The notes beneath the pieces were generated by a model. The model did not search any database. It had not been told where the DNA came from and saw only the letters and a list, made by a program, of their open reading frames with translations. A program made the position numbers and the translations under genes. Positions 16,201 through 58,629 of a DNA stretch of 64,000 nucleotides are shown piece by piece. Source of the DNA: Blasia pusilla. Its lineage: Eukaryota. The first letter of the stretch is position 1. Each line of letters starts with the position of its first letter. The stretch lies in the NCBI GenBank assembly GCA_050084515.1, contig CM114271.1, positions 2,170,001 through 2,234,000 of the forward strand, read 5' to 3'.

Positions 16201-17138
16201 AGACCTATAATGCTTCCCTGGTGGGACCTCAACCACTCCCATGCCTCAGGAGGGGGCGATGATGCGGGAAGCACCGGAGAGCATCCATGGTCAACCGGAG
16301 GGACCACCCATCCAAATCTATCAAAGTCATGATGTTTAGCCGCTAAGTGGTTCCGAATTCCTGAACGAGTGAAGAATTTGGGACAACATGGGCATTTAGT
16401 ATCCCGACTAGACAACCCACGGGTCCCCACACGGGGAGCCGATGCGGGTCGAGGCATGGATGCAACTCACCAAGAAGAGGTCATGGCCCCCTCCAATAAA
16501 ATCGTGCGACAATCCCCCGCCAATAACTGTCCTATCATCCCCATTCGAACGAGCGTTCCTGGCAAACAACTCTCTTCCCGTCCACAGTAATGCTCCCTCT
16601 AACATAAACTCTCACCTACCAACATCACCTAGGACTTCTAGTCCCAACCCCCTCCCAAAAATGAACTCATGAATACCTAGAGTTGCTAAGAGTGTGAAAA
16701 GATCATGGGCCAAAATAGATAAAATAGATGAGAAGAAAAGTGTATCTACGGGAGGGGTAACAAATACAAACGTGAATCGAACCAAAATGAGAAGCACATA
16801 CGACAAATACGACAAACAAGGAAGGGTGGGTGAATAGAGGACGTTACCTTGGGAAATTTCTCCAAATGACAATAAGCAAAGCCCTAATACTCACATTTGG
16901 AACCCTAATATGAACCAAATTCTAAAAAGATGAATAAAAATAAAAATACATCACGCCATGCATCAAGGTCCAGATCAAAACGAAGCCCTCATCACGCTCT
17001 CCGTTTCGATATGTAGCACGTCCCTTCTCTTCCCCGGCACCCACCGTTCTTCCTCCCGTCGTCCCCGTCCATGCCTCCTGCCGCCCCCGTCCCAAACTCA
17101 AAACTGATAGAGCATATAGCCCTACGTGGGGAGAAGAA
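13204..17138 (-). mobile_element. CRE-like RLE non-LTR retrotransposon, copy A (near full length)
   Basis: Single-ORF layout C2H2 finger, RT, CCHC, RLE. The 5' region (~17040-17095) is homologous to the 5' end of copy B. A candidate short TSD tccagg lies at 13198-13203 and 17139-17144. Confidence 0.85.
13335..16457 (-). pseudogene. Frameshifted RT/RLE ORF of CRE copy A
   Basis: Motifs in order: CPCCPKFFTRSGIRNHLAAKH (C2H2); GGIRPIAIGEVLLRL; QVDVENAFN; GDPLG; SLADD; GLRVLG; CECCRSLDPLGVHLARC (CCHC); THDAVRD; RADLYM..ADMVVTD..KK..Y..FIPLAIEMYG (RLE). Several frameshifts interrupt it. Confidence 0.9.
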
Positions 17139-24200: not shown

Positions 24201-25298
24201 TGTGTTTACTTCATCGAGCATTGTATGGATTGAAGCAAGCCCCAAGGGTATGGTATCAACGAATAGATACATTCTTCCGAGAGAAGGGTCTCATCAAGAG
24301 TCCATCAGAAGAAAATTTGTATGTGTTTTGCGAAGATGGGATGTATATGTTGATAGTCTTGTATGTGGATGATCTGATCATCACAGGAGACCACAATAAG
24401 AAAATAGAGGAAATGAAGGGAGTGTTGAAATCTGAGTTTGAAATGTCAGATTTAGGTCTTTTGCACTACTTTATAGGGCTGGAGATTTGGCAACAATCAG
24501 ATTCTATTTTTCTCTCTCAGCAAAAGTATGCTAGAGAAATCTTGAAGGCATTCGAGATGACCGAGTGTAAGGCAGTGGTCTTGCCAATGGAGGTAGAGTT
24601 GAAACTCTCTATGGAGGATGTTTCACCATTGGTAGATGAAAAGTTGTACAGAAAACTTGTAGGCAGTTTGATATTTTTGTGTAACACTAGACCAGACATT
24701 AGCTTCGCTATGGGAGTGTTGAGTAGGTTCTCAACTAAGCCTCGTGAGAACCATTGGAAGACAGGGATGCGTGCGTTGAAGCAAAGGCACTATCGAGTAC
24801 CGCATCACCTATGGAGCAGGGACGGAAATGACAGCTTTTTGTGACTCGGATTGGGTAGGAGATTCAGATTCTTGGAGATCAGTTTCGGGTTATTGCTTCT
24901 TGGTAGGATCAGGTGAGGTGTCATGGGTCAGCAAGAAGCAACCTACTATGGCTCTTTCTTCTACCGAGGCAGAGTACAAGGCGGCTTGTTATGCTTCTTG
25001 TGAAGCAATATGGTTGAGATGGATATTGGAGGACATAGGAGAAGCACCATAAAGTGCTACTGTAATGTGGTGTGACAATCAGAGTTGCATTGCCATAGCA
25101 CATAATCCTGTGTTTCATGCTCGTACGAAGCACATAGAGATTTAATATAATTTTTTTCGTGAATTGATCGAGAGAGAGGTTTTGAAGTTAGTCTATTGTC
25201 CAACAGAGGATAACCGTGCATACATCTTCATGAAAGCTTTGAGCGGAGATCAGCTTCACCGACATCTGAAGGGTCTTGGCATAGGTCCAAGACAGTAG
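21281..25298 (+). pseudogene. Copia gag-pol with stops and frameshifts
   Basis: Gag knuckle CFYCGKLGHLIKDC; protease WVLDSGAS; LWHERFGH; integrase VDDYSR, LRTDRGGEF, ERRN; RT KARLVAQG, LYGLKQAP, LYVDD; RNase H CDSDW, STEAEY, CDNQS. Confidence 0.95.
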
Positions 25299-36500: not shown

Positions 36501-38520
36501 TTCTATCAAAGATTTGTCAAAGGTTTTGCTCAAATTGCACAATCCTTAACAGCTTTACTACGTAAAGGACAAAAATGGAATTTGCGCACATCACAAGAGA
36601 TTGTTTTTCAATCATTAAAGGATGTCTTGATCAAAGCCCCTATTTTGAAGTGGTATGATCCTAATCGACCCATCAAGTTGGCCACATATGCTTCAGGTAC
36701 TAGCATTGGAGGAGTACTACAACAAGAATGGGAGGATGGATGACATCCTATTGCCTTCTTTTCTCGCAAGCTATTGCCAGCGGAGCAAAACTACCATACA
36801 ACTGAGCGAGAAGAACTTGCTATTGTGTTGGCAACCAAGCATTGGAAACATTACTTGGGCGATAAGGAGTTTGTAGTGGAGACTGATCACAAGCCCTTGG
36901 TCTACTTAGAGTCCAAAAAAGGAGCTTTCCAAAAGTCAAATTCGATGGGCAGAATGGCGACAAAAATTCATGATGAAAATTATCTATGTGGAAGGAAAGA
37001 AGCAATTGGCAGACGTCTTGACTCGTATACCACAGATGAATAACATATCTGAAGTGGAGATTCACTCTAGTTGGTGGAAAAAGTTATCCAAAGCCACAAA
37101 GGAGGATGAAGAAATTGCAGTTGCTATTCATGCCAACAGAGTATACAAGGTTCAAGGATTGGTTTTCCATGAAGGCAAAGTATGGATCCTACAAGATCCA
37201 CAATTACGCACTGAAGTATTGTCTGAAGCTCACGACACAATCATTCCGGGTCATATAGGAGCTGAAAAAACCTTAGAGGGATTACAACGGGCATACTATT
37301 GGCCCAAAATGAGAGAAGATGTTGACGTATATGTAAGGAGTTGTAGGATTTATCAACAAATCAAGGCTAGAAACACAAAAGCAGTAGGATTGTTACAACC
37401 GATCCCAATACCTCAAAAACGTTGGGAACAAGTCACTATGGATCTTGTTTGTGAGCTACCTTATACGATCACGGGATATGACTCTATTATGGTCTTTGTG
37501 GATAGATTAAGCAAGATGATACACCTTCGTCCGACCAAGAAGACTGTGACTGCACCAGAGTTGACTAGGATCTACATCAAGATAGTCTTTGTCCATCATG
37601 GTCTTCCTAAAGTGCTTATCATTGATAGGGGAACCCATTTCATGAGTTTATTTTGGAAGGATTTATTCGGATTGCTCCAAACTAAACTAGCCATGTCTAC
37701 GCGCTTATCACCCTCAAACTGATGGACAAACTGAAAGGGCCAACAGTATCATTGAGGATATGCTACGCACCTTAACGTTAGAGGATCAACAAGGATGGGA
37801 CTCGTTGTTATGCTTAGTAGACTTCTCATACAATAACTCCATGAACTCTTCCACTAAGACCACACCGTTCTTTTTAATGCATGGCGAGCATCCCTCAATT
37901 CCTTTTAGTCTCACTCGAATAGGGAAAAGTCTGAGGGAACCTACAAAGGTAGCTGCAGTTAATGAGTTTGTGGACCAGATTGAGAAAGGGTTTCAACTTG
38001 CTAAGGAGAAGTTGGCTATTGCCCAAAATCGACAAAAATAACATATAGATGCTCATCATCGAGATGTCGAGTTTTTTGAAGGGGACAAGGTTTGGTTAGC
38101 AACAACCAATTTATCATTAGTAGGAGTTCGTAAGCTTAATCCTCGCTATATTAGGCCTTTGACTATCCTACAAAAAGTAGGCGGCGTGGCGTATAAGCTA
38201 GACCCACCAATGCATATGAAAATCCATCCTATGTTTCATGTCTCTCTTCTTCGACCGTTTATTCCACGCCCTAAGAGATTTAAGGACAATATTGTCACTC
38301 CACCACTACCTTAAACAGTCGGAGATCATGAAGAATTTGAAGTGGAACGTATCTTGAAGAAATGCACTCAAGAAGCTCATCACCACCGAGTTGAATATTT
38401 GGTCCATTGGAAAGGATATCCACTATTTAAGGCCACATGGGAACCCTCAGCCAACTTGGCGAACGCACCATTAATAGTGCAAGAGTTTGAAAGTTCTCAC
38501 AACGAGGACGTTTTATTTTA
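33536..38520 (+). pseudogene. Gypsy gag-pol (PR-RT-RH-IN-chromodomain), degenerate
   Basis: [46 protein letters not shown]. Chromodomain FEVERIL...EYLVHWKGYP..ATWEPSANL at ~38330-38465. Confidence 0.93.
34103..34990. repeat. ~300-bp inverted duplication inside Gypsy gag
   Basis: 34103-34405 is the reverse complement of 34689-34990, with a spacer of ~283 bp. The ORF track shows the same peptides on opposite strands. Confidence 0.92.
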
Positions 38521-39078
38521 AATGGGGGGAGGTTTGTAACCATACTTTGTTAGTCATAGTTAAGTTAGAATTTATGATATGAAGCGCATAAGTGGAAAAG
38601 AATCAACCAAAAAGAGAAAAGACAAGATACATGAGATAAAGATGAGAGTGGGGCCATAGGTTGGTGAAAAGGAAGATAAAGATGAGATTGAGGAAGATGA
38701 GGTTGAGACATTAGACTCCAAAGGAGATTCTCTCATGCTATGAGAGTAGAACATGTGGCATAAGGATAGGTAGAGCTAATTTGTCTTCATTGTACCTATC
38801 TCTAAGTATATAAAGGAAGAGGAGAGGCCATGAAGGCATTCTACTTTTGAGCAACTCTAGAGTGGTTCCGTCAGCTGGAGAGTTACAATAGGTCAAGAAG
38901 GAATCTAATAGAAGAATAAAAGTAGGTTTAATGAAGAAAATTAATGGAGATGGTTTAGTAATCAATTGTAAGTGGGGATAGATGATTTGTGGAGTTAGAA
39001 GGGATCATTTTCTTCCTTCCATCCTCCCCTAGATAAACTTGCTCATTTTTTTATACCCTCACAATCTCATTCCTCCCT

Positions 39079-39123
<45 letters not shown>

Positions 39124-39393
39124 CGTTTTTTTCCATAGATAGTTGAACTTGATAAGTGAGAATATGTTTTGCCATTAGATAACCATGATACTAAAAGTAT
39201 TTTGGTTATCTAGGTTAGCATATTGATCTTTCTTGTTCATAGTGAGTGTTCCAAGTTTTGTTATTGGAGCATTCATGGACAATATTTGGTGTAATTTGCA
39301 TACAATTTAATGATCGATATATACTAAAATTGACAGTAAATTGTTGCAAATTTTCCAAATATTGTTGGGTGGGGTTAGTGAGTGCCTCTAGTC

Positions 39394-41843
39394 ATGACCA
39401 AAGCCAGAGAACTCCAACAGATTATGAAGGAATATTCGGAAGAAGTACAGATGGAAGGTGGAACATCAAACAGATGGCAGTGCAAGTATTGTTCATATTC
39501 TATGAAAACCTATCATAGCACACGGATGGTGGAACATTTTACACAAGAGAGACAAAAGACAAAGGATGGGAATAAGGATACCCATCATGCCAAATTATGT
39601 GTGAAGGTCCCTCCCAACGTGCAACGAGATCTTCGAAACAGGGTACTAGTGGAAAATGGACAAAGAAGGGAAGCAAGACCTTCGAAAAAAGTGGAAGAGA
39701 CGACTCCATTACAAATAGGTTTGCAACAAACAAGAAATAGTGTTTATGTTGTACAAAATATTGATGGGGTTGCAGACATGCCACCAAGTGTCAGTCTCGA
39801 GGAATGCATAGGAGTTGTTGGGCCCATTCGAGGGAGTAGTAGTTCTGGGAAGAAACAAGCCGATCTGAGGGATTCTTTCAACATCCAAGGAATAGAAGTT
39901 GCAAATGACATGTGGGCGAAGTGTTTCTATGAATTTGGAATACCATTCAACGTAGTACGGTAGGATGCTTTCAAAGAAGCAGTGTTGGAAACAACAAAGG
40001 TGAAGGGTTACTCACGTCCCAATTATAATTCGTTGCGCACCACCCTACTTGAGAAACATATGGGGAAGGTGAAGGAAAAGGTGGATGGCATATTGGACAA
40101 TTTGCGTTTGGGGGCCACGATCATAACGCATTCTTGGACCAATGTGAGAAGCGAGTCTTTAGTGAATATAATGGTCTCTTGTCCACAAGGTGAGGTCATG
40201 ATTAAGTCGATAGACACCAAAGGAGAATCCCAAATGGCGGAATGGTTGGCAAGTCACATAGAGAGGACTATCATGCGAATCGGTCCAGAGAATGTGTTGC
40301 AACTTGTGACAGACAATGCTAGCAATGAGCGAGCAGTAGGGAAACTACCGAAGCAAAGTTCCCTCATATTCTTTGGGATGGATGCGTATCACATTGTCTT
40401 GATCTAGTCTGCGAAGAGTGGGATAAATGGCCTTGGGTGGACATGATTTTTGCACAAGATCGTGAGATGGTAGTATTTGTGAAGACTAGAACTTGGGTGA
40501 TGGCCAAATTTATGGAAACCAATCCAATGAAGAGACGATTGTTGCTTCCTGCAAATACACGCTTTGCAACAAATTTTATCATGTTGGGACGCGTCTTAGA
40601 ATTTAGGGAGGCGTTCTACGCCACGGTTGCTACCAATGCTTTTAGGGAGTATTTCAATGGCAAGGATGCAAGGCAAAGGGAGAAGGCACGAGAGATTGAG
40701 ACTACTGTGGCCAATCACGGTTTTTGGATGGAGGGTGAGGAGTTGTTTGCTGCGGCTCAACCAACAACTATTCTGTTGAGAGAGTGTGATGGTCATAAAG
40801 CAATGACTGGGCGTATTTATCGCCGTATTTTTTAGATAATGGAAGAGACTTGTTCTTTTCTTGTGACTCCATGGCCGGGTGTGGGCGGAAGGCGTCACGG
40901 TTATTTTATCACAATATCTAGAGCTATAGAGATGGTCGATGTTATTTCTAGGCGGTGGGCACTTATCCACAACAAGTTACATGCACTAGGCTATATTCTC
41001 GACCCTTACAATCTTCTTGATGATGTTCAAGACATCACTTCAAATGCTGAGCGCATGAGAGATTTCAAACAATATCTGAAACTGTATGCAATGGGGGTGC
41101 ATGGCCTCAATGTCACCCAGGCTAATTATTATGTGGCAACTTGCTTGCGAGAGTTGGGCAACATTGTGAACCATAAGGAAATATTTGTGGATGAATTTGG
41201 TAGGGAAGTTGTTGATTCACTATGTCCCTCTGATTGGTGGAGCATGCACGATCAAGGTGCACCAACATTGCGCTCTGTGGCTAAGTCCATATTAGCACAA
41301 GTGGTTTCATCTTCTTCAGCGGAGAGGAATTGGAGTAGTTATGGTTTCATCCACAACAAACAGAGGAATAAATTGACCAACGAGCGTGCCAAGGATTTGG
41401 CTTATATCTATACAAACTCAAGGTTTGGAGACAAGGGTGTTTCTCAGAAATCAAGACAAGTGCTCTTGTACGAGCAATAATTTTCAGAAAGGGATGGACA
41501 AGAACAAGCTAGAAGGGTAGTAGAAGATGGCAGTGAATCTAGCTTGCATGCAAGAAACAATGATGGTAATCATGAAGACAACCTTGACTTGCAAGATGAG
41601 GATCTAGAGGAGATGGATGTGATATGTGGAATTCATGGCATCAAAGGGAGAGAGGATACTCATATCGGCAATACTGAAAATTTTGATTCCGAGGGGCTTG
41701 GAAGAGATGAAAATGATGTTGAAATGGAACATTGGATTCGAGAGCACAAAGAAGAGCAACAACGGAGGACTTCAAGCAAATCCAATCTTCCCATCACTTC
41801 TCCTAACACAACCTACCACTCAGAATTATTCCATCGAGTCTAG
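39394..41843 (+). pseudogene. hAT transposase (BED finger, DUF659-like core, dimerisation domain)
   Basis: WQCKYC..H (BED-like); FGIPFN; ITHSWT (first catalytic D apparently lost); VTDNA; CVSH; TRFAT; WW..APTL..ILAQVVSSSSAERNWS..IHNKQRNKL. In-frame stops at 39961, 40833 and 41478, plus a frameshift at ~40350. Confidence 0.92.
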
Positions 41844-42249
41844 TGAACCTATGCGGGATACTCCACCACAATCTTTGAGCGCTGAAACGGTGGACTTAGT
41901 TGATGAGCCTAATGATAATGATGTTCTCATATCGATGGTTCCAAACTCTCAACCCATCAATCATGGCATGGATAGTTTATGTATTTCCTCCGATGTGAAA
42001 CAACTACAATAAGAGCTCGTCGTCGATCCACCCGCCTTTGAACTATTGAGCCGCCAAATTACCGCTTACATCTTAATCCACTGGACCCAACCATAGACCT
42101 AGAGTAGAAGAGTAATTACAAAATTTAGTGAGACGGATTAATAGACAGTTGTAGCAAACTTGTTTTGTGATGACTATTGTAACAATGTCATTTTTATGAC
42201 AATCCTTTTTATATACTTCTCCTTAATAAAGCGTTTATTTTTACATTGA

Positions 42250-44960
42250 GGTGAAATTGGTAAGCGTCATTTTTGAGCTCATGGTCACCACTCCAATTTG
42301 CTCAAAACTTTGCAAGAGTGCTACAAACACAAGTTGGGAGAGTTGGGCATGATGAAAAATGAAAAAACCTTATTTCCATTCAAGGTTTAGTGGTTCGGGG
42401 CCAAAAGTACTTACATATTTTTGAGGTTTTCCTCACAAATTTCTTTTGGTTAAAACTTGGAAAAAGTGGAACATGCATCTTAGAAACCATGTCAAAAAAC
42501 TTTTAGCTCAAGATGAGAAAGTAAGACAAGGTGAAAAATGAAAAAACCTTATTTTGATAGAAGGTCTGATGGTTCGGGTCCAAAAAGGAGTTAGAAATTT
42601 TTGAGCTTTTGCTCACAACTCCATTTTTCCTCAAACTTGGCAAGAGTGGTAGACTCACCTTGGGGACCTTGTTGGCCCAATTTCAGCTCAAGATGAAGAA
42701 ATTGGACAAGATGAAAAATGAAAAAACCTTATTTTGATAGAAGGTCTCATGTTTGGGTCCAAAAAGGAGTTAGTAATTTTTTAGATTTTTCACACAACTC
42801 CATTTTGACTAAAACTTGGCTAGAGTGTATTATGCACCCTGGGGACCACGTGGGCTAAATTTTAGCTCAATATGACAAAGTTGAACAATATGAAAAAATC
42901 TTATTTTGGTAGAAGGTTTGATGGTTCAGGTCCAAAAAAGAGTTAGAAATTTTTGAGCTTTTTCTCACCACTCCATTTTTCCTAAAACTTGGCAAGCGTG
43001 CTAGGGTAACCTTGGGGACCATGTTGGCCAAATTTCAGCTCAAGATGACAAAGCTGGACAAGATGAAAAATGGAAAAGCCTTATTTTGGTAGAAGGTCTA
43101 ATGGTTCGGGTCCAAAAAAGGAGTTAGAAATTTTTGGGCTTTTGCTCAAAACTTAATTTTGCCTAAAACTTGGTAAGAGTGCTAGGGCCACCTTGGGGAT
43201 CATTTTGGCCAAATTTCAGTTCAAGATAAAAAGTTGGACAAGATGAAAATTGGAAAACCCTTATTTTGATAGAAGGTCTGATGGTTCAGGTCCAAAAAGG
43301 AGTTAGAAATTTTTGAGGTTTTGCTAACAACTTGATTTTGCCTAAAACTTAGCAAGAGTTCTAGATGCACCTTTGGGACCAATATGGCCAAATTGCAGTT
43401 CAAGATGATAAAGTTGGACAAGATGAAAAATGAAAAAACCTTATTTTGATAGAAGGTCTGATGGTTCGGGTCCAAAAAGGACTTGCCAAATTTTGAGCTA
43501 GTGGTCCCAACTCCATTTTGCTTGAAAATTGGCGAGACTACTAGATGAACCTTGGAGACCATGTGGGATAAATTTCACCTCAAGTTGAAAAAGGTGGACA
43601 AGATGAAAAATCATAAGACTTTCTTTTCATTCAAGGTTTAATGGTTTGGGTCCAAAAAGAAGTTCGTACTTTTTGAGCATTTGCTCACAAATTTGTTTTG
43701 CGTGAAACTTGGTGAGAGTTCTAGATGCATCTTGGGGACCATGTTGGCCAAATTTCAGCTCAAGATGACAAAGTTGGACAAGATGAAAAAATGAAAAAAC
43801 CTTATTTTGATAGAAGGGCTGATGGTTCGGGTCCAAAAAGGAGTAAGTAAGTTTTGAGCATTTTCTCACAACTCCATTTTTTGTGAAACTTTGCAAGAGT
43901 GCTAGATGCATCTTGAAGACCATGTTGGCCAAATTTCAACTGAAGATGACAAAGTTGGACAAGATGAAAAATGAAAAAACCTTATTTGAGTAGTAGGTTT
44001 GATGGTTGGGGTCCAAAAAGGAGTTAGAACTTTTTGAGCTTTTTCTCACAACCTCATTTTTTTTTGGGGAGCATGTTGGCCAAATTTCAGCTCCAGATGA
44101 CAAATTTGGACTAGATGAAAAATGAAAAAATCTTATTTTGATAGAAGGTCTGATGGTTCGGGTCCGAAAAGGACTTGCCAAATTTTGAGCTTGTAGTCTT
44201 AACTCCATCTTGCTTGAAAATTGGCAAGACTGCTAGATGCACCTTGGAGACCACGTGGACCAAATTTTACTTCAAGTTGAGAAAGGTGGAGAAGGTGAAA
44301 AATCATAAGACCTTATTTTCATTTAAAGTTTAATGGTTCGGGTCCCAAAAGGAGTGAGTAATTTTTGAGCTTTTTCTCATAACTTTTTTTTTCCTGAAAC
44401 TTGGCAAGAGTGCTAGATGCACCTTGGGGACCATATTGGCCAAATTGCAGCTCAAGATGACAAAGTTGGACAAGATGAAAAATAAAAAAACCTTATTTTG
44501 GTAAAAGGTGTGATGGTTCGGGTCCAAAAATGAGTTAGTAATTTTTGGGTTTTTTTTCACAACTCCATTTTGCATGAAACTTTACTAGATTTTAACATGC
44601 ACCTTTGGGAACACGTGGGATAATTTCTGTTCAAAATGCGAATGTTGGACAAGATTAAAAATGAAAAAAACCCTATTTTGATAGAAGGTCTGATGGTTCG
44701 AGTCCAAAATGGACTTGCCGCTTTTTGGGCTTGTGGTCCCAACTCCATTTTGCTTTAAAATTGGCAAGACTGCTAGTTGCACCTTAGAGATAACGTGGGC
44801 TAAATTTTAGCTCAAGATGGAAACGTTGGACAAGATGTCTGGTTAAAGACCTTTTTTTTTGCATTCAAGATTATCTGCTTCGGGTCCAAAAGGTCATTTT
44901 AAACTTAATTTGGGATGAGACTTTGCGAGAGTGATAGATGTTACTTGGGGACCATATGCA
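42250..44960. repeat. ~180-bp tandem array (~15 units) inside the hAT
   Basis: The anchor aaaccttattttgatagaaggtctgatggttcgggtccaaaaagg recurs at ~42364, 42545, 42724, 42900, 43078, 43258, 43438, 43618, 43798, 43978, 44130 (shortened unit), 44310, 44490, 44670 and 44848. Confidence 0.96.
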
Positions 44961-45746
44961 CTTTTCTATAGAATGTTAGAAGAGTTATTACATTTCACTC
45001 TTATAAATAATTACACTCTTGCAATCTAATGTAAATGATATCCTACTTCCTAGAGTAAATCCATCATTCCATAAAATTCAAACCAAATCTATTCATTCTC
45101 CATTTAAATTCAATTTCCCTTTCCATTACATATGAATCAAGGCACCTCTAAATTTATTTATCTAACATTTTCAAATCTAGAAAATTTTAGTAATATTTTT
45201 ATTCACCTATTATAATATTAAATAAAAATGAATTAATACGTAAATGTGGTTTTCTATTCCACCCAAGTCCCTTTCAAATTCTACCCCATGCAATATTGGT
45301 CAAAGGGATCAAATTCATACATTATTTTCCCTTAAAATTCAATTCAAACATATATTTTCCTTTATTAATTTTGGAAAAAAATTCATCCCTTTTCCAATCT
45401 CCATCTTTCAATAAATAAAAGAAAATCGCTTATTTTTATGAAATAGTAATTTTTTGGAATTAGTAATAAAAAAATGTAAAAGTATATCAAATAAATCATT
45501 CAATTATGGTATCTTCCACCTTATCCAAGGATTTATAACCCAAGATAACAATTTCATCCATTTCATGAACTCACTTCATGGACAACATTCGTGATCGTCT
45601 CACATTCACAAGTTTTCTTAGTGGAATATTATGATTTTTTTTGAAAATGTTTTACAACAAATGAGGAGTATCCCACAAAAAACCTGGATTGAGAGGAACC
45701 TAATACTTATGTACATTACAAAGATATAAATATCAACTCATTCTCT

Positions 45747-48114
45747 CTAATTTGATTCATCGTCCGATATATGTAACATCGGTGCTGACGTCTCACCATT
45801 TCTTCCTTCTCTTCCCCTAGCTCTAGTCACGCGCATCCCACCTCCACGAGGAATAGTCCTTTCCAACTCAACATCAGCTTCACCATCATCAGTTTCTTGT
45901 GTTGGCTGTGTCGGAAATATCTCCCACTCTCTCTCGAAGAATCCAAACAGTTCCTTGTGCATTCGACGAGGGTAATAGTATGTTCGAGGATATCCGCCTT
46001 CAGTCCTTTAAGGAATATCTTGCCATAAGAAAGGTAGCAAGATCAATTCGAGTCTCCTCAAAACAAGCTCATCCATCGATGGATTTTGATGATGGTTTAG
46101 CACAAGTTGTCGAGTTGTGTTGAGGGCGTCTCGAACTTCTTGTAAATTCAACCCTTGAGCAAAGAAGAAGTTTTCCGCCTCTCGATTTTGGATATCAATG
46201 GCTGTTTCGTAGATGAGCTCTCCTCGATCGTACATGTCAATGAAGTTGACCAACCACGCTCGCATTTCCCGATCAATCCTCCGTTGGCGAGGGATTTCCG
46301 CTTCAACCACCCGTCTATAACCCGAGTCTTCGGGGTTATAGTTCGATTGGGGGCTACGATGTCCCAAACTATGAACTTTTCTTGCTCTTGGGTTAATTTG
46401 TGATAAGTGGGTGGTGCATTGCCATCAAGAGCGCGGAAAGATATGTTGAAAAGGTGATAGAGTCTTCTTGACCAAGCTTGTCTACAATTTGGCCACTTGT
46501 GAGACAGTTGCCTTTTGAAGACAATATGGATGCCAATAACAAGCTTTACATGTGCCTGTCATGTAGCAACATTCTGCAACAATGGGGTTGAAGCAGATCA
46601 TGCATTTGGGCCAATTGTTTGGCGTGAGGGCCCCTCCTTCACATACTGCGATTGCCTTCATCCAATCCGGAAGATCTTGCACTTGTGTGTTCGGATTAAG
46701 AGGTGTTGGTGCCAGCATCATAGAGGCATAGTTCGCAGCGTTTGGATCTACGACATTATCCCATGCTACGCATAGAGCTGGAGGCCACAACTGCTCGATA
46801 GGTTGAAATAAGATCATATCAACCTCCTTCACGAGATGACCCTCAAGAAGGTTGTCTTTGGGTTGAGTTCTCCCACGTTACCTCTTGCTCTCCATCGCAA
46901 TAATTCATCCATCTCTTGCTGTCGTCTTGCCATGATGTTCTCATATGCTCTCCTCCACTGCTTTGTGTGGTCAACCATTACATCTCTTTGCCTTCTATGG
47001 AGGTCATCTCTTGCAAGAGATTCGTTCAAAGCCTGTCCATCTCTTTCTTCAATTGATGTGCTCCTCAGATAGCTGTTCATACTTGCCCTTCAAAACGTTG
47101 AATTCCACGGCAAAATCAAAATTGTGTTGGGAATTTATTATTTAACTCTCCAATTGTGATAGACGAGACATTACCTCGCTTTTCTCCAGAGCACTCTCCC
47201 CGCAAAAGGTTTGGGGAGGAGCACCGCTATGTATAGGGCGATCAGAACTCTCCTCGGGCTCATCAAAGCTCGTACTACGACCTACATAGAGGTAATTCAA
47301 ACCACCTCGTCTATCCTCCGCCCCCATCTGTACTCACCCTTCATCTCTACTCTCGTCTTGTATATATTCTTCAACACGACTATTTCTTCTTTGACCATCC
47401 AAGGAAGATAGTATGGCTCTAAGGCTCCTTGACAATCCACCTTGCTGATAATGGTGTGACGACGCTCGTGGTGATGAAGCTTCCACTCTTGCTCATTTAA
47501 AGTGTTGCCGTGGGGTTATACTGTCTTCTTCTCTTGGTCTCTTATCTCTTCTCGAAGACCCCTCATCCACATCACCATACTGGACCTCCATATCTTTCAT
47601 CAACTCCGCAACTTTGAGCTGAACAAATACCTTGCTCACTTACTTCATCTTTCTCTTGGGAAGGTCTTCGTACTTTCGGACGCCATTGAATTCAATCTTT
47701 TCATCCTCTTCCACATGGGACCTCCATATCTTTCATCAACTCCGCAACTTTGAGCTGAACAAATACCTTGCTCACTTACTTCATCTTTCTCTTGGGAAGG
47801 TCTTCGTACTTTCGGACGCCATTGAATAAAGCCCAATCCTTTGTCCAGTCATCCTCTTCCACTTTCCTTGCAAATTCTCCAATTGCACGCTCCGGCCACT
47901 TCAGCCGCGACTTCTTGAACTCTCCTTTCAAAACTTGTGGGTCAATGGTGCTATCCAAGTGTGCCTTCAATTCATCTTCCCTGACAAATTGCGATACCAT
48001 CTTCTTGTTCACCTTTTGAGGGATCTTTGGTGTCGGTGTATCTAGGGAATCTTCCCCTCTTCCGTCGTCCTGATTGTCGTGAGGGCTATGGTCTTCATGA
48101 GGCGGCAACTCCAT
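45747..48114 (-). pseudogene. hAT cargo gene 2: charged/coiled-coil protein with a RING-like Cys/His finger (~740 aa if repaired)
   Basis: Consecutive minus-strand ORF pieces run from MELPPHED to ...HISDDESN*. The finger CMIC-x14-CKACYWHPYC continues after a frameshift as (W)PNC. Stops, frameshifts and an internal 109-bp duplication disrupt it. Confidence 0.6.
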
Positions 48115-48308
48115 CTTGTCTTTTACCAAAATACAAAAAGAAAGGTGATTTAGAAATGATTCCAAGAATAGTGATACGATGGCACACGATACATCCACAC
48201 ATCAATCAAGATTCATTATTTGCAAAATTTCATAGTAACACATTCATCTTTTTGAACCAAGTCTTCCATTTCTCATGAAAAATATCCAATCCTCAAACGG
48301 GTTTACAA

Positions 48309-49690
48309 TCATACTACCAATGTTATTGGCCTTAATCCCGAATCTACATCGTCTACACCTAATACTTTCGTATTTGCTCTAATATATGCAATAAGAAACT
48401 CTAAGATTTTGCGATCAGAGGGATTCGGAGCTAATGCCCACTTTCGAATCCTTTCCAAATAAGTAAATCTCACCTTCGCTTGGGCATTCCCGATAGAGAG
48501 ATTGTATGTCACATAGTTCAAATTCTTCACAATCATTCCTAGGGCATAGATTTCAGTGGCCATGCTAAAAGGGAGATTCTGAGGCCCTGTTGTCAACTCC
48601 GGTGCTATATGCCCAACATGATTTTTTTGTTCCTGCTGCCACCATCCATGAGGAGACTCTAAGACTTCATCAGTCCACATGGCATTCCCCCAATCTCCAA
48701 CGCCGATGTATGGGCTAGAGTTGGATCCAAAATGGATGAACATGTTTCTAGCATGGAGGTCGGTATAAAAAACCCCACGCTTGTGGGCAGTCTCCATGGT
48801 TCCAAGAAGGGAAACCACAAGCTGGACGACATTTGATGCTATTGCAAGACATCTCATCTTTTCCAACTCTCCTAGATTACCCCTGCCGTTCTTCAAGTTA
48901 TGGCATGCTTGCAACTAATTTTTGAGGTGTCCACCATTCCAATATGGAAAAATGGCACGTGGTGGATCCTCGATCAACCTTCCCACCATGCAAACAACAT
49001 GGCGATGTAAAATACTAGCAAACAACTCTCTCGCATCATCGATTTTCTAGATCCTGATAGAGATGATTCCTTATACACCTTCATGCAATAGTACATTTCT
49101 TCCCTAAAGCCATGGGTTCCGTTTATTTTACAACGGTACACGATTCCATGTAAATCGGTTCCCACAATATCGCTCGGGTCATGTCCTATTACTACATTCT
49201 TATCACAAATGAAAGTTATTGCACATGGAACGGTCAATGTCAACCCCAGAGAAGTACTTCGTCCCTTGAAAGGACGTTGAGCACTTCTTAACTCTATACA
49301 GAATCTTTCTAGGAGAGCTGACTCTGCAGCATTCTGCTTCTCATCCTTATATGTCTTGGGATTGACATATGCTCTCTCTAGGTTAACACCTTGTTGGGCT
49401 CAAAATTTTGTCAATGTATCAGCCTCTGCGACATCCACTTCCCAGTCAAATGCCTTTGCCACTCTATTGGACAATCTCTGCAACTCCAAGGTGTAGTCAT
49501 GTAAACCATCCATACCCCTCAAAATATAGGATCGTCTCTTCTCTAAAGAAAGCTGGAAAAACCAGTCTAACCTTGCCTCTCTTACGACCATGTTGAAATC
49601 ATTCCTCAGAGTTGCTCTTTGCCTCTTGGCACCAACGTTGGACTCATTTCGGTTCTCTCCCGCTCTCGATGACCCAGCCCCACTAGACAT
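48309..49690 (-). pseudogene. hAT cargo gene 1: atypical eukaryotic-type protein kinase (~460 aa if repaired)
   Basis: Subdomains in order: IVGTDLHGIVY, CMKVYK, MMRE, LHRHVV, FPYWNGGHL, FYTDLHARN, VGDWG, HIAPE, TEIYALG, PSDR. Lesions: TGA at 49400, a frameshift at ~49020 and TAG at ~48915. Confidence 0.85.
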
Positions 49691-52600
49691 TTTCCTCGGA
49701 TGAAGAAGATAATATCTTAAAAAATACAAGGGAGAGAAATGGACGGGTTGAGATAAGAAAATACCGAAAAGAGAATGACGTGAGATGCTAAAAAAATGGC
49801 TCGGAATGTACTAGCGCGTGAATGATGGAAGTCTAGGGTTGGGCTCTCAAAGGGAATAGGTAGATATGGGCGTGTTTAGACAAGGTTTCTTGATCACCTC
49901 CACATCCTCGATGTGCTAAGGAGAACCAATGGAACAAGTAAAAAAAAACTCGGGTCTATGAATCGGAAATCTCAAAATCACCAAGCAAGTTTAGTGAAAT
50001 AAGATATTTCCACACTCACAAACATTCACCTAATGTGGAGTCGATTGGAGTTTATTTTAGATGCAACAAGGATCGCAAATATCCAAGTTGGTCCCAAATA
50101 AAATCCAAGTACTCCCAAAAGGCACCCAAGGGATTTCTCCAAAATTCCTAATAACCTTGAAAGCCCTTAGCTCTCAAGGCATCATAAAAATTTGGAGCCT
50201 AATCCAAAATATGACTAAAAAACTGGATAAATAGGGAAAATAAGGGTTAATTACCTAATCAACTCTTAAACACCCCCCCCATATGTACATTTTTGGGGCC
50301 CCTTGTGGGCCCTTCCCTTATGGGTTTTACCCCAAAGGGAAAAAAGGGGGAAGGGGAGGGGAGGGAATTGGGGCCAAGTTCAAACTTGGCCCCAGCCACT
50401 CCCAGGCATGCGGGCGGGGGCTCACGGCCCCACATGCGAGCAAGGGAGGGCTCGCGAGCCCAGGGGGCGGATGTCGCGCGCCACAAAGCCCCTGCGCGGG
50501 ATGTACAGCGGGCCCGTGGGGGGGCTCCAGGGGGTGGGGTGGGGTGGGAGTCCATGAGTGGGCCCGCCATAGCCCGCATGTGAGCTCGAGGGGGGGGGGG
50601 CTTGCAGGCAGGAGGGAGGCTCGCGGGCTCCATCGCGGGCCACAAAGCCCGTCGCGCGGGATGTACGCGGGCCCTAGAGCCCGCATGAGGGCGAGGCCTA
50701 AAGCGACGAATTAGAGGGTGCGACGCAACCCAATTTTTCCGCGACGCGGGTCAGACAGAAATATAGGGGCCGAGCATGATGCGCATTGGCCAGGAAAGGG
50801 CGGATTGCTCGATATGCATAGGCCTGGGTAAGGGCAACGCGGGCTCATGGAGCCCGCACCCGGGCCCGCACGGACATGTCCGTCCTCGGGACGGACATAT
50901 GTACGCGTGCAACCTTGCATGAGGGAGAGGTTTGACTCGTTCCTTACGGATTGCGCCCATCATTTCCAGTCGAGAAATGGATTGTCCTTAGCCACTGCGA
51001 TACTTGAATGTAGGCAACGGGTCTCCATAGCTTTGCAGCGTGCCCAGGAAAATGGGCTTTTGCGGCGGGCTCAGGCGGTTGGAGACGCCAATGCTAGAGG
51101 CCCACTTAGTAGTAGCCATAATTCTATTTGTGTTGCTGATATTGCCTCTGCTGTTGGTGATTTTGGTCGTTAGACAGGAGGCCCCCTTTTTTCTCTTCTC
51201 TGCGGGTTTATTGGCTCTCTATGGCCCCCTTCCTTTGTATCCCGATGGGTTTTCCATCTCGGTTTCTATTAAAGTGTATAATCGTCTCACTAGTAACTTT
51301 ATCCCCGCCACTTCGCTAACTCATCCCCATACCACTAACTCATCCCCGTACTTTGGGGGATAAAAGCCTAAAATCCTCTCTATCAAGCTGTGCCATTTAA
51401 AACCTTCTTTATTTACTGATTAAAAAACACCCCTAAAAGCTCTTCAATAATTCTCCCCGTAATAAAGTCGGCGAATGGGCCGAAGTCAAAATATGTATGA
51501 ATGTCAGGGCATCCGGTCTCTCTGGAGAATGGACTTAATGGACTTCGGGGAACTTGTCAGTGGAGTAATGCTCAGTAATCTACTTCCGATCCCGTTTAAT
51601 GAGCGCGGACAAAGATCCCGTAGATGACAGGTTCAACGCAAAGTCAACACAGGCGAGCAGTAAATAAAGAAGAGAGCTCCCGTGGGAACTGGGGGACTCA
51701 GGCCCTCAGGGAACTCAGGGAGTCAGGGATTCAAGGGAAGTGCCGGTTTCCCGAAAAGTGTCGCGCCACGTTATGGCGGTAGTCGCTGCTGCTCCCCTCC
51801 CCACCTCCTCGTCGCCAGACGTCCTCCCCACGAGCGCGAGGGTCCCGGGGAGGGGAAACCGAGAGAGAGAGAGAGCGAGCGAGCGAGCGCATGGCATGCG
51901 ATTGCTCGGTTCCGCGTCGGGTTCGGATTGGCTGCGAGCTCCCGCACGCACGCGCGCGCGCACAGTCGCTACGGGATTCTGCTTGCCAGCGACCAGAGCT
52001 GGCGAGCGACTTGAAGTCTCGACTCTTGAAGGTGAAGGATATTGAAGCCCTCCAACTCTTTCCGTTTTTTTTTTTTTTTCCCCAGCGAACGGCAACACAA
52101 TCAATGCTGCGCATGGGAGACGAGGATGGATGATGGATCGATCCGTTGGAACTCGCAAGAGCTGATAGGATAGGATCCGAGATTCGGAGGAGGATGGGCT
52201 AGCGGGCGTCAGATGATTTCGAAGTTGGCAGCAGCGGCGGCAACAGCAACAGACGACATTCGACCCGCAAGAGGAAAGGAAGAAGTGACCCACGCCTCTA
52301 GTTTTTCACGGGCGTGGCGATGGTGGGCGGAGTCGGTTCGCGGCGGATAGCTTCGTAATGAATGAATGAATCGTGCCATTGTAGAAGCCGTGATTTTCCA
52401 GCCATCGCCAGCTCCTGTGGGGCCAACCATCGGCTTTACCCGTTTCGAGCATCGCGTCTAATAAGAAAGAAAGAAAGCCCCCCAGTGATGATTCGGGGGT
52501 TTCCCCGCGTGCGCGACGCTCTTCCCATCCCGTCGCGCAACCGCAGACATCGGCGAATAGTTGGGTTCTTTTTTGGTTTTTTGTTGTTTCTAGTAGGGGC

Positions 52601-52917
52601 AATGAAGGAGCGTACGTCGCAGGGAGGGAGGTTGTACGAGAACTCGCGAAACTTTGATTGGGCTGTGTCGTGTTTGAACTTTGACAGCATACCTACCTCG
52701 GCAAACGACAATTCTAAGGCTGCCTGCCAGGCGCTGACATTTGAGACAGGATGCTACCGTTCCGAACGAGATTACATTCAAGACGATGGACATGTGGAGA
52801 CGGGTGATTCCGCCAATTTTCAACGAATCGTTGCGTGCTGTCACTCTTACATCGCTGTAGTTAAGACACACCACCGCCTACGGAAAAACGTACGAATCAG
52901 TAATCCTCCTTCTTCCG

Positions 52918-54929
52918 GAAGTGGAAGTGGACGTGGAGAACTCCTTCAACTCAATATCTCGGGTTATTATATTCACAGAGTTGAGGGACGCGGGTGGCCC
53001 CATGGCGAGTCTCACTCTTTTTGTGCAGGCTTTCTATGGGGCCCCTTCGGCTCTCTATTTCCACCATGGTCGATTCGAGGAGGAAGTCCCGGTCTTGGAG
53101 TCTGCTACTGAGACTCGTCAGGGTGACCCTCTGGGTGGCGCGTTGTTTGCTGTGGCTCATTACCGAGCGGTTCTTTCTACGGTGGAGGCTTTCCCGGGTT
53201 GCATGTTCCCTTCGCTGGCAGATGATACTCATATTGTTGGTCCTGGAGATCTGGTTGTCCCTGCATTCGAGCACTTTTCAGCACAGTTGGCACGTGTCGG
53301 CCTGGCGGTGAAGGTGGGGAAGTGCAAGGCTTGGTCTCCATCAGGCCTACGTGATGATCTACATTTACCCGACGGCTTCTTGCGACCTGTCGGAGGGCTT
53401 CGAGTCTTGGGAGTCCCGCTCGGGAGCCAGGACTTTGTATCGACTTTCGTGGCAGCGGCTCTTACCGAGGATCTTCTCCACGTTGATGATCTTACGAGGA
53501 TTGGTGACCCTCAAGTCGCCTTCGGCATTCTCTCTTCTTGTTTTGCTCGTAGACCTGGTTACCTCACTAGAACTGTCTGGACATCTAGTCACCTTTCTTC
53601 CCTATATAGATCCTTTGATAGGAAGCTCATGCAGGTGTTTGGGGATCTTCTAGGACCCGGCTCCTTAGAGTGCCCCATGGGGGAGTTAGCTCGTAGACAG
53701 GCCTCTTGGCCGATTTCTTTTGGTGGAGTAGGTCTTCTCTCGACCGAGTTAGTGGCGCCCTCCGCTTTTTTAGGGAGTTGGGCCACAGTGGCACCCCTCC
53801 TTTGCTCCCGATTTTTGGTTAGAGATAGACCGCTCCTTTTACACTACGTCTCCCAGGTCGAGGATGGCTCTTTCCCACATCCGTCTTCACTCACAGCTTG
53901 TAGAGATTCCCTTCGAGTTGAGGCCAGAGCCGTTCTCCCCACTTTCTCCTCCTTAGTTACCTCCGGTCAGTCTGGGCTCCAATCTTCCTTGATGGAAGCC
54001 CACTTTGAGGCAGTTTTTAGAGGCACTATGTCTGACGGGAATATCCCCATGGAGGTTAGGGCCCGTATTCGCTCTTGCTCCGGAAAGGGAGCAGGCTCAT
54101 GGGTAGGGGCGCGCCCCCTTCTCCAGGCTTTCCGTATCGCACCACTTACCTATACCACAGCGATGCGGTTCCGCTTGGGCCTCCCCCAACCATCGGTGGT
54201 TGGTTCGACACACTGCGAGTGTCGCCGGAGCCTGGATCCACTTGGTGTGCATTTGGCACGCTGTCCAGTTGGGGGTGAGAGGATAGCCACTCACGATGCA
54301 GTGCGGGATATTATGTTCAGTATTGCTCGGGAGAGTGGCTTCCATGTGCAGAGAGAGAGGCACTACTCCATGCGGGATTCCCTCATTCGTGCCGATCTCT
54401 ACATGACACGTGAGGCTGAGGTGGTTCTGGCGGACGTGGTAGTCACAGATCCTATGCGGGAGGCAGTGCGAGCCCAAGTGGTGGCCCAAGGGCCAATGCT
54501 ACAAGGAGCGGCGGCGGTGGCGGCGGCGAAGAAGACACATATCTCTGATCGACTACGACGGGACACATCTTCATCCCCCTGGCCATAGAGATGTATGGGG
54601 CTATGGGGGAGAGGTTCGACTCGTTCCTTACGGACTGCGCCCATCATCTCCACTCAAGAAATGGGTTGTCATTAGCTACTGCGATTCTGTATTGTAGGCA
54701 GCGGGTCTCCATAGCGTTACAGCGTGCCCAGGCTGTGGGAGATGCCGACGCTAGAGGCCCACTTAGTAGTAGTCATAGCTCTCTTGTTGTTGCTGATATT
54801 GTCTCTGCTGTTGGTGAGTTTAGGGTTAGGGGGGGAATGCCCCCTTCTTCCTTTTCTGGTCTTGTTGTGGCCTTCAGGTTTTGACTCTTTGAGTCCCCCT
54901 CGTTTTTATCGAAGTGCATCTTCTTTCTT
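52918..54929 (+). mobile_element. CRE-like RLE retrotransposon, copy C (5'-truncated, young)
   Basis: A 555-aa open frame starts at VDVENSFN in the RT and is very similar to copy A. Candidate 12-bp TSD ctcct(t/g)cttccg at 52906-52917 and 54930-54941. Confidence 0.9.
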
Positions 54930-56277
54930 CTCCTGCTTCCGAGTCCGAACTCCGGAGTCCTCACTGGGCCGCCTCCTTTCCATGTCTACGGCCATTCTTA
55001 GCGTTCTGATCGATTCCCTGTCTCTGACGTCTCCTACCGGGAGCAGTCCGCATTTTAGTGGAGAGCGATGTGTGGCAGCGATGAGCTCGTGCTTCAAGCT
55101 TCCAAGGAAAAATCGCGAAATGCGCGGGATTCAAACTCGAATGTTCCAGGCAACGGTCACACGCCTCAATCTGGATGCTGTTGCTGCTGCAGGGCACGGC
55201 CGACCTAGAAAGCAACCCCCCCCCTTTCACACAAAGTCTCCTGGTGGGATTCATGCATGTCAGGATCCGACCAATACTCCCCTCGTTGCGTACATAGATG
55301 AATTGCACGGCTGGATAATGCAAGTGAGAATTGAAAGGGGTGCGTGTCTAAGGGCGCTATCGCAGAAAGCAACAGTGAGAAGTACGAGCGGAACCACAGC
55401 TCAATAATTCACAACAGAAGTGACCGCAAGAAAGCAAGAACTCCTCCAGACAACAGGAGGACGAGGACGAAGAGGAGGGACGACAGAAAACAAATCCATG
55501 CACAGAGAAAGAGCGGCGACATCACCAGAGCTTCCAATACGACGACGTGAGATAAAATGAAATTGGGCGAATGAGTTAGATTAAGCTTCACGGTCAAAAT
55601 ATGGCCAAGCGATTGAATTTTTACATCAAAGTAGTTCTATCTATATAACCCCGGCGGATATATTCGAGCATTGAGGTTTCTCTCACCCGACTACTAATGG
55701 TGAGTTGAAGGTGCCTGGAGGATCCATGGACGAACAGGATCGTACGCCAGACGTTTATGCAAAAACTGCAAATTCTGTTCATCTAATTAATTTCGATTGA
55801 GAAGAGGAGAGAGATGCACGAGCTCACTGCATGCCCCTCGTTATGGAAGAATTAATTTACAAGAAACTGCTGTTCAACAAAGACCTTTCCCTTATCTTGT
55901 ACGGCCGGTCGGTCGGTCGGTGGGTCAGAAGGCCACTCGAGGAATCCCCCGTCGAGAAGGTTTCGATCCCTGTTCAATTGCCAGAGTTTCATCGGAGCGT
56001 AGATTGCCCCTCCTTTCCAGCTCAACTGATTCAGGATTATACAGAAGACCCTGGGATCAAAAAGCCCCAGGATCAAGGTTTGGACTCACTTGAGGAATCG
56101 TTCGTTCTTGGGTGATTATCCAGGCAGGCTGTGCTTGCAGTTTGCAGTGCCAGGATCCATCCGGTGCGAGTGCAACTCCATGGTACAATTCGTCGCCGGT
56201 CGGTCGGTCGGTCATTAATCAAATGGAGGCTTCAACTAAATCTTATATCATCGGTGGCGTCATTTTCGACGCTGTAG

Positions 56278-58629
56278 CTATTGCCATTGCAGCTTGTTGG
56301 GGTCCTCCAGCGATCTAAACGTGCGAAGCGTGTAATCTCGTAAGTGTGTGTCGTGCACTTCACAGAAGCGGGATTCCCAATCTTCTGGCTTCACCGCCTC
56401 CGTGCCCAAACCCGGAGTTCTGTCTTTCGATCCCGAGTTTTCCTGCTTCTTCCAATCTGTGGTGTAAGTTCCTGCTCTCCTCACGAACTTCAGCTTGAAG
56501 ACGTCCCAAGACTGCATTGCATGCGCACACAACACACGCAAACATCTTAAAAACTCGTCTCATGATCCTGTCATCGTACAGCTTAATTCACTACACCGAA
56601 TCGAAAGTTCCAAAATCCTGTCATCGTACAGCTTAGCTCACTTCACCGAATCGAAATTTCACTCCATCGCGACCCTCGGCCGACAATTCAGAGTTTTTGA
56701 GATTGAAGGGAAGGTGACAGATAGTGGAAGGAAACATGGAATCCGAGCGAAAGCCTCGACGTCGAAGAAAACAGTGCGGTTTAAGATGGAGTGAAAATCC
56801 TCGAGATCTGCGAATAAGATCCTCGGCTTCACAGACGCATGGCTTGAGCCAATCCCATACGTGACCTCAAGTTGAACCATGAGGAAGGGAAGGGAAGGCA
56901 GTGCCGCTACGAGGAGAACAGGAGCCTCACCTGAAACTTGTAGTGATTGACGACGGCGACGTTGCGGAGGAGTTTGACACTGCGGTAGCTGGAGCGCAGC
57001 TCGAAGTGATGAAGAACGTTGAGCAGACTGGTGTTCACCGCCTCGAGAAACACGATGGACTTGTGTCTCTCGGGGTTTTTCAGTCGGCAAGTGTACCCCA
57101 CTGTCACCCCTTGTTCGGGGGAGTGATCCAAGCCAGACGGGCCAAAGTTGTTGCAGTCGAATTGAATTTCTCCGAGCGCTGCTCCGCTTTTCCTCAGCAT
57201 CTTGTTGCTCTCATTGTCTATAATCCTATGGAGAACCTGCGCATCCTTCACTGTGGACGTGTTGTCTTTACTGAGATAATAAGGAGCGTAAATATATTCG
57301 TCGACGTCCGAAAACATCACCCATTCGCACTCCTCCCTCGCGAGAATGGTGCAATGCGAGAAAGCCGCCTGCTGCGTCTTAATCCATGGCCACGCCATGC
57401 GACTGACATTGTGTGCAGCCAGAGAATCGATCACCTCTTCGGTGTTGTCATCACTGTCGTTATCATACACGAAGTACCTCTCCACTCCGAAAAAGCTATG
57501 GTACGTGACCCACTCCTTGATGAATTGGGCCTTGTTCCAGACCATCGTGCAAGCGCACAGCTTGCGCTTCGGTACGAAAGACTTGATGGCGCGCGCAGAC
57601 GGCTCGCTGGCTTCATCGGCGTCGAGCTCGGTCTGCGCAGCGCCGTCGGTGTCGAAATTTCCAGGTTCCGACGCAACATCTCCATCGCCTTTCCAATTGG
57701 AGCTCTCGTCGTCCGAGTCCGAGTCCGAGTCCGAGTCCGCAGCGGAGACGATATTAGGCGTCCCCCCCCCCATCGTGAAATACTTGAGGAACCTGTCGGG
57801 ATTGTTGTCGGGATTGTAGTAAGTCACGGATGGAAGCACTCCCAGCCAATCGGCGTAAACGCTCACTCTGAATCCCCTCAGCTTGTCCTGCAGGTGCGGA
57901 GGCGGTTTCTCGCAGCGGACGATTTCTTGGGCCGCCGTGAGCACTCGCGTCTCCACGAGGTTTTTGGCGGAGAGCGTTCTTCCGAAAACGCATTTGAGAG
58001 AAGTGACGTCGATTCGCTTGGAGCTTTTGGTGACCAGACCTTTCACTAGGAGAACCAGACTGTCCGTGTCCAGCAGGTTCTCGTATACTACGAAGTCCCA
58101 GGTTGGTAATCTGGCAGGATCATACACCGCGTTGGATTGGAACCTCACATCACTGCCTCGAATTCCGAGAGTGACGTTCTGGTGAGACTTAGAGGGGAAA
58201 TCTTTGAGCCAGTCGGGAAGGCTGCATCTCACCATCTGCACATCTCTCGTTCGCGACTTAATGTTGATCACCGGGGTCGTGCTCCGGTTCTTCATGCCTC
58301 CGAACCTGCACTCCAGGATGTCCATGTTACCCTGGAGATCCACGGAATTGGAAAACACCTTCACGACCAACAGAATATTGTCCGGGAAAACCACAGCGTC
58401 TTGAACGTAAAACGACCGCTGAGTGTCCGGCGTCGCCATGCTCCATCCCAAATCGCTCTCGGATGCTATCGCAGGCAAACTCGATAGTTGATGAAGGCTC
58501 ACCGACACTGTCGAATTCGCCCGCGGCCCTGCAGAATTCCACCGATCTCAATCAATCCACTTCCTCGAGTAAACCCTTCCTGCAATCTCCGCAGACACGA
58601 GCTTTTCCCGACATACAACAAAGGGAACG

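Follow-up and report, generated by a model that had tools for sequence, protein, structure and literature searches.

The window, that is, the whole 64,000-nucleotide stretch of Blasia pusilla DNA analysed here, contains a decayed protein kinase gene on its minus strand. Reading that strand from 49690 to 48309, with two stop codons and one 1-nt frameshift bridged and an X placed at each break, yielded 460 residues. The start ATG occupies 49690-49688, the first frame extends to 49043, and the second runs from the frameshift to the stop codon at 48311-48309. The gene is composed of the following parts.

48309..49690, minus strand: kinase pseudogene, 460 codons when read through, stop codon 48309-48311 included
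49163..49690, minus strand: N-terminal extension of ~176 residues, ending where the Gly-loop remnant begins at residue 177
49400..49402, minus strand: lesion 1, an in-frame TGA at codon 97, in the N-terminal helical region
49043..49046, minus strand: lesion 2, a shift of the frame by one base at an A-run (within it or immediately upstream), placed by collinearity with relatives
48915..48917, minus strand: lesion 3, an in-frame TAG four codons past WNGG, placed by the reading frame and relatives
48312..49162, minus strand: kinase domain and C-terminal tail, delimited by motifs and relatives
49162-49145, minus strand: Gly-rich loop remnant GTDLHG, from residue 177 onward
49087-49076, minus strand: CMKV, with the beta3 Lys
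48944-48930, minus strand: YWNGG
48767-48744, minus strand: catalytic loop YTDLHARN
48698-48687, minus strand: GDWG
48608-48597, minus strand: IAPE
48425-48411, minus strand: NPSDR
48341-48327, minus strand: C-terminal SGLRP

Bridging lesion 2 joins ...SLSGSRK to IDDAREL..., and a basic KRQR stretch lies within the N-terminal extension at 49627-49616. The initial annotation had described an intronless open reading frame of ~460 aa that emerges once three lesions are repaired, with an N-terminal extension of ~170 aa and with the kinase subdomains, including YTDLHARN and DWG, in order. Our coordinates bear this description out in each respect: the three lesions are those given above, the extension is of nearly the length stated, and the motif coordinates agree with the collinearity. 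The subdomain order is collinear with that of full-length relatives, and intron-sized gaps are not needed. At two conserved sites the window copy differs from its family, the second G-loop glycine being replaced by D and the His of HxD by Y, and these substitutions fit decay. It keeps the residues K, D, N, D, and E; in the alphaC column an R is aligned, and the residue after it is an E. Judged from its sequence, with two stops, one frameshift, and substitutions in both the G-loop and HxD, the window copy is dead and non-functional.

We searched for relatives of this gene. The 201-aa C-terminal open frame scored 30.1 bits against Pfam Pkinase, slightly below the 31.7-bit cut-off, and the other six window pieces gave no significant Pfam match. 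A phmmer search of 1.84 billion representative proteins with the same 201-aa frame returned 23 matches at E<=1e-3, none of them at or below 1e-10; the best had E=3.8e-10 and 34-35% identity. In the reverse direction, tblastn of the phmmer relatives against the window found this locus only, and the best alignment, that of the Riccia relative (E=1.9e-22), spanned the TAG codon. The kinase similarity of the window locus, as measured by these searches, is not chance.

About 20 of the phmmer matches, together with their cluster mates, form a distinct family, whose whole members are 443-502 aa long; the remaining matches at E<=1e-3 were ordinary kinases or unrelated proteins. Common to the family are WNGG after the hinge, HxDLHxxN, DWG, APE, and a C-terminal SGLRP, within a layout of an N-terminal helical region, a basic linker, the kinase domain, and an SGLRP tail. 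The members in named species, all annotated merely as "hypothetical" or in generic terms, are as follows, and the other members lie on contigs of 1-3 kb.

Riccia fluitans: KAL2609948.1
Adiantum nelumboides, four members: MCO5546586.1, MCO5580937.1, MCO5566894.1, and MCO5554107.1
Adiantum capillus-veneris: KAI5075984.1, in the 90% cluster of the fern-type relative P0041

All eight relatives that were scanned scored above the Pfam Pkinase cut-off (35.7-72.9 bits), and PK_Tyr_Ser-Thr scores were equally high. In a quick maximum-likelihood tree, the 18 family rows (window included) stood apart from five ordinary kinases with an SH-aLRT of 100. The window row was placed loosely (82) beside those of Riccia and A. 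nelumboides, and its long branch (2.08) leaves its exact position unsure.

Other searches added few relatives. A word-index protein search with the family profile recovered only sequences like the fern relative P0005 and ordinary kinases, and the same kind of search with the window kinase piece against longer proteins gave no match. The window piece found no relative in metagenomes or in IMG/VR, nor did P0005 in IMG/VR, in a scan that detects close relatives only. A narrower-alignment search brought up one metagenome locus (L001), which proved to encode an HRDLK/DFG kinase with leucine-rich repeats; this is an ordinary kinase, and it was placed outside the family. The kinase, though divergent, genuinely belongs to the eukaryotic protein kinase fold, and its family, as delimited by these searches, is small, rare, and unannotated, and comes from seed-free land plants (ferns and a liverwort). 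The view of the initial annotation that the gene is not a captured fragment of a standard RLK or CDPK agrees with this result, as the gene belongs to a separate rare family with its own common layout and odd motifs.

We then examined the catalytic residues, counting each site over the family rows that cover it. The beta3 Lys was present in 17/17 rows, the alphaC Glu in 16/20, the catalytic Asp in 22/22, and the following Asn in 21/22. In the DWG motif, D was found in 21/22 rows and both W and G in 22/22, and the Glu of APE was found in 20/20. The His at D+2 was shared by 18 of the 22 rows, and nine of the 22, the window copy included, had an Arg at D+4. A profile of the family (window piece included) matched PDB sequences with E ~4e-21, the best being FGFR2, EGFR, RET, JAK, and B-Raf. 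The bilobal kinase fold was modelled on the relative P0005, not on the window copy; the AF2 model had a pLDDT of 86.2, with a confidently modelled helical domain at residues 1-118 and a disordered basic linker at 119-147, which together correspond to the N-terminal extension of the window copy, followed by the kinase domain. In a Foldseek search against the PDB, this model had at least 500 matches at E<=0.001, and those listed were all protein kinases; the best were FGFR2/3, MET, Csk, and MerTK (E ~2e-12, 14-19% identity). By profile and by modelled fold, with R at D+4 in only 9/22 members, the family appears nearest to tyrosine and TKL kinases.

Because the catalytic residues are conserved, intact family members are probably active kinases. 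They combine these conserved residues with DWG and with the loss of the RD arginine, a combination that suggests that they are probably constitutively active, so that their activity may be independent of activation-loop phosphorylation. The initial annotation had stressed the oddity of the motifs, and they are present as described, but they look less exotic beside two known kinase types. The catalytic loop of tyrosine kinases reads DLAARN, which DLHxRN resembles. DWG is normal in CK2alpha, where, as one report describes it, the motif takes the place of DFG and, in this constitutively active kinase, stabilises DFG-in, the active state, while disfavouring DFG-out (PMC9608649). The further suggestion of an effector- or toxin-like kinase was not borne out, as no sign of such a role was found.

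The N-terminal domain, when folded alone (P0050), gave a pLDDT of 86.9, but its best structural match had a Z of 5.5, too low to be significant in the case of a helical domain. The Atlas clusters nearest to the kinase family include kinases bearing MLKL_N (23% and 98% of members), which we treated as a lead only. The candidate resemblance to the MLKL N-terminal domain was not supported: Pfam MLKL_N had no match in the relatives at E<=0.01, MLKL was absent among the 50 structural matches listed, and the domain model has no significant structural neighbour. Presumably, the domain serves in targeting or oligomerisation.

The kinase pseudogene does not stand alone. Downstream of it on the same strand lie the remnants of a second long open frame (ORF2), and the two share a block of repeated DNA.

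45750..48114, minus strand: ORF2 remnants, ~790 codons, beginning 195 bp downstream of the kinase
47575..47827, unstranded: 136-bp tandem duplication, 1.8 copies, 97-100% identical, disrupting ORF2
45450..50250 (approximate), minus strand: co-amplified repeat unit of ~4.8 kb with kinase and ORF2, delimited by read depth and a GC jump

ORF2 carries several stops and frameshifts, and a cysteine-rich stretch of the pattern CxxC...CC...CxxC...H..C at ~46500-46600. Four pieces of it had no Pfam match at E<=1, the comparison with PDB sequences was not significant (E 0.83), and a word-index protein search with one piece found no match. At 46508-46509, AGCA was extra in 65/120 reads and G in 84/101 reads; as many other ORF2 copies thus have bases that are lacking here, the window copy has its own deletion at this site.

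Copy number was estimated by mapping one WGS run (X12, of which ~1 in 100 reads was used) and three stranded RNA runs with the same species label to positions 38000-57999, counting reads from at least 80% likeness. Summed WGS depth was 98-131 over the kinase (48005-50005) and 92-140 over ORF2 (45337-48004), against 0.84 and 0.83 in the low-copy controls at 55342-57999 and 51340-52673. The depth of 36 in the bin 50006-50672 is what would be expected if the repeat reached ~245 bp into this bin and stopped at the GC jump near 50250. The ends of the unit are estimates from 667-bp depth bins and this jump, not termini. Relative to single-copy DNA, the unit is present in ~100-150 copies, a figure that holds to an order of magnitude only because 9925 of 18656 reads were partly aligned and the control depth came from few reads. 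Within the window, no second copy of the kinase or of the unit was found. CpG observed/expected was 0.57 in the kinase and 0.66 in the unit, close to the values for the neighbouring hAT and Ty3 transposons (0.54 and 0.57) and well below those for low-copy DNA and the host GT92 gene (1.08-1.13). CpG depletion like that of neighbouring transposons fits long-term methylation of a repeat, and together with the high read depth it supports the view that the kinase is repeat-borne.

These results bear on whether the locus could be a retrocopy, a processed pseudogene recently derived from an ordinary host kinase with introns. The intronless reading frame is what such an origin would leave. Among the phmmer relatives, however, none was closer than 35% identity and no family member was a standard RLK or CDPK, the atypical motifs and the N-terminal domain are common to all relatives, no poly(A) tract follows the stop codon, and neither the high copy number nor the co-amplified downstream ORF2 fits a retrocopy. 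We consider this origin barely credible.

Hardly more probable is that the locus descends from an integrated large DNA virus, or from another endogenous viral element, that carried a kinase. Giant viruses encode many kinases, which the P0005 model matches at the fold level, and in the Atlas the nearest proteins to the ORF2 piece were hypothetical proteins of Nucleocytoviricota, but at 0.76, under the lead threshold. In BFVD, a set of viral structures, the model had only generic kinase matches, the strongest at E 4e-13 and at identities of 12-18%, and the cellular kinases of the PDB match it at least as well. The IMG/VR scans with the window piece and with P0005, able to detect close relatives only, came back empty, and capsid, polymerase, and packaging genes are absent nearby.

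Several other repeats surround the unit. The nearest are the following.

39382..41840, plus strand: hAT transposase pseudogene with DUF659 and the hAT dimerisation domain, 6.5 kb from the kinase unit
42341..44837, unstranded: 180-bp satellite array of ~14 monomers, between hAT and the kinase unit

The satellite monomers are 67-82% alike, with a CpG observed/expected of 0.25. The hAT pseudogene carries a frameshift that about half of the other copies lack, as an extra T after 40345 was present in 70/135 WGS reads. Farther out, 38000-38889 is the end of a Ty3-type retrotransposon whose gag, protease, and integrase open frames lie at 34.5-37.7 kb. DNA depth over this end was ~184. RNA depth was 320-334 in all three runs and, with the first mate on minus, came from the plus strand. 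The alignment of DNA reads stops at 38887/38889, where 77 and 109 reads have loose ends. On the other side, 52674-55341 is a GC-rich repeat with a DNA depth of 120-530 and strong RNA; a 575-aa open frame within it (52861-54585) had no match in Pfam. The stretches 50919-51193 and 54603-54850 are partial direct repeats of each other, 77-88% identical. Elsewhere in the window, remnants of a Ty1/copia-type polyprotein (Pol_BBD, SH3_retrovirus, RVT_2) occupy 22188-24841 on the plus strand, and three long open frames (460, 261, and 378 aa) with no Pfam match lie in a 55% GC block at 13459-16466 on the minus strand.

The initial annotation had tied the kinase to the hAT transposon. If so, the kinase and ORF2 would be passengers in one element of ~11 kb whose transposase is the frame at 39382-41840. 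The transposase shares an AT-rich, CpG-poor block with the kinase at a distance of 6.5 kb, its depth is of the same order as that of the unit (147-165 vs 92-140), and a single element could run from the boundary at 38887/38889, with its 77 and 109 loose ends, to the one near 50250. Yet comparison of 38850-39390 with 49700-50900 gave no inverted repeats flanked by an 8-bp duplication, although the copy is decayed and its termini may be lost, and a search of 41800-45800 for ends belonging to hAT alone found none. The satellite and AT-rich spacer between them have a depth of 33-85, below that of both flanks, which is unexpected if the two were joined in most copies and argues that hAT and the kinase unit are neighbouring but separate repeats. 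In addition, the two genes are on opposite strands, and hAT had almost no sense RNA (0-2.6 over 39334-42001) while the kinase region had some. The hAT pseudogene is probably a separate repeat from the kinase unit, and one composite hAT element appears improbable. The hAT part of the earlier claim was thus not upheld; residence in transposon-like DNA, present in ~100-150 copies and with low CpG, was.

The unit itself gave no direct sign of its type. No TIR, LTR, target-site duplication, or poly(A) was found delimiting it, and the Pfam search found no transposase, RT, integrase, or helicase domain within it. The only pair of candidate termini, agreeing at 12/14 bp at 45444 and 50217 with an AAA flank, was rejected as being at chance level by estimate.

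Transcription was assessed in the three stranded RNA runs, with a glycosyltransferase family 92 (GT92) gene at 56910-58547 on the minus strand as the single-copy and strand control. This gene is expressed and single-copy by depth, and reads spliced across its intron at ~56512-56930 skip 419 nt (5, 17, and 15 reads in the three runs). It fixed the library orientation, as reads from a minus-strand gene have their first mate on plus. Over 48005-50005, RNA depth was 1.46-6.32 in the GT92 orientation, compared with 0-0.75 in the other. ORF2 RNA was lower (0.2-1.0 over 45337-47337), and the bin 47338-48004 had inflated depth because a 38-nt stretch in it (47828-47866) is shared with an abundant transcript that is otherwise unrelated. 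At this stretch 45-77 RNA reads per row had perfectly agreeing loose ends, which fell at 47828 in every run and at 47866 in two of the three. The RNA signal shows that some kinase copies or paralogues are weakly transcribed in sense; it is a family-level signal and does not single out the window copy.

We favour, with moderate confidence, the interpretation that the locus is a decayed, silenced copy of a ~4.8-kb repeat, present in the order of 10^2 copies and most likely a transposable element or the cargo of one, which encodes an atypical TK/TKL-like kinase together with ORF2. One strand of the repeat unit would carry an intronless kinase gene and a second gene of no known family, and the kinase would begin with the helical N-terminal domain, continue through a disordered basic linker into the kinase domain, marked by HxDLHxxN and DWG, and end in the SGLRP tail. 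The description of the kinase as "transposon-borne" is likely to be correct.

A different account, which we regard as rather unlikely, is that of a lineage-specific host gene family that was amplified in tandem, segmentally, or by nearby transposons, the locus being a pseudogene of it. Neither a transposition enzyme nor termini were found for the kinase unit, and the same depth would be expected had a cluster of host genes been amplified in tandem or segmentally. The intact relatives of 470-502 aa, which lie on contigs of 1.8-3.3 kb from several sequencing runs, may be expressed genes. A precedent has been described in Rhizophagus irregularis, in which high-copy kinase genes behave like repeats, carry methylation, and lie beside Mutator-like elements (PMC8647823). 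On the other hand, ~10^2 copies at least 80% alike, with uniform depth over ~4.8 kb that includes ORF2 and non-coding flanks, are not readily explained in this way, and the CpG decay is like that of transposons. The family is also nearly absent from annotated proteomes (23 matches in 1.84 billion), which would fit repeat masking.

Returning to the transposon reading, a more specific form of it can be put forward only tentatively. A transposable element lineage of seed-free land plants might encode a constitutively active TK-like kinase that acts on proteins of the host or the element, for instance silencing, DNA-repair, or cell-cycle factors, with the cysteine-rich ORF2 product as a possible mobility or structural protein. 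Such a lineage would amount to a eukaryotic transposon with a protein kinase of its own, of which our literature searches found no description.

Captured gene fragments are common in plant transposons. What is uncommon here is that a whole, conserved, probably active kinase gene has been amplified about a hundredfold with a second gene of no known family. Our literature searches for transposon-encoded, -borne, -derived, or -associated protein kinases found nothing relevant, the matches being to the aminoglycoside kinase of bacterial Tn5. Should the unit prove mobile, a signalling enzyme would join the few accessory functions that eukaryotic transposons carry, and the unit would offer a way to study the interplay between elements and the control exerted by their host. 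If it instead belongs to a host family, the kinase would represent a clade found in ferns and bryophytes, lineage-specific and so far without annotation, whose catalytic loop is unusual and which has DWG; this would be relevant to kinase evolution and to annotation where such genes are masked as repeats.

Among known systems, the family is most like tyrosine and TKL kinases. Its best profile matches are FGFR2, EGFR, RET, JAK, and B-Raf, its modelled fold resembles those of FGFR, MET, Csk, MerTK, and Abl, and nine of 22 members have the Arg four residues past the catalytic Asp, as in DLAARN. It differs from them in having HND instead of HRD, His instead of Lys or Ala at D+2 (18/22), and DWG instead of DFG; the structural alignments are at only 14-19% identity, and the N-terminal helical domain and SGLRP tail are family-specific. 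The likeness to CK2alpha is limited to the DWG motif, as no CK2 chain was among the best 60 PDB profile matches and the family is not CMGC-like. With MLKL it shares a general plan, in which an N-terminal helical domain of ~120 residues precedes a kinase-like domain in a total of ~450-490 aa, but the catalytic residues of the family are intact, unlike those of a pseudokinase.

As to genomic setting, hAT elements offer a neighbour of similar copy number 6.5 kb away, but the two share no termini, and kinase-carrying hAT elements were not found in the literature searches. A closer parallel is provided by the Rhizophagus genes and by maize MULEs, which, according to the same source, hold pieces of receptor kinases (PMC8647823). 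In these cases, as here, kinase genes behave as repeats and lie beside DNA transposons. However, those genes are members or fragments of large kinase families of their fungal or grass host, whereas in Blasia, with no MULE, a whole intronless gene of a rare family and its companion ORF2 are co-amplified.
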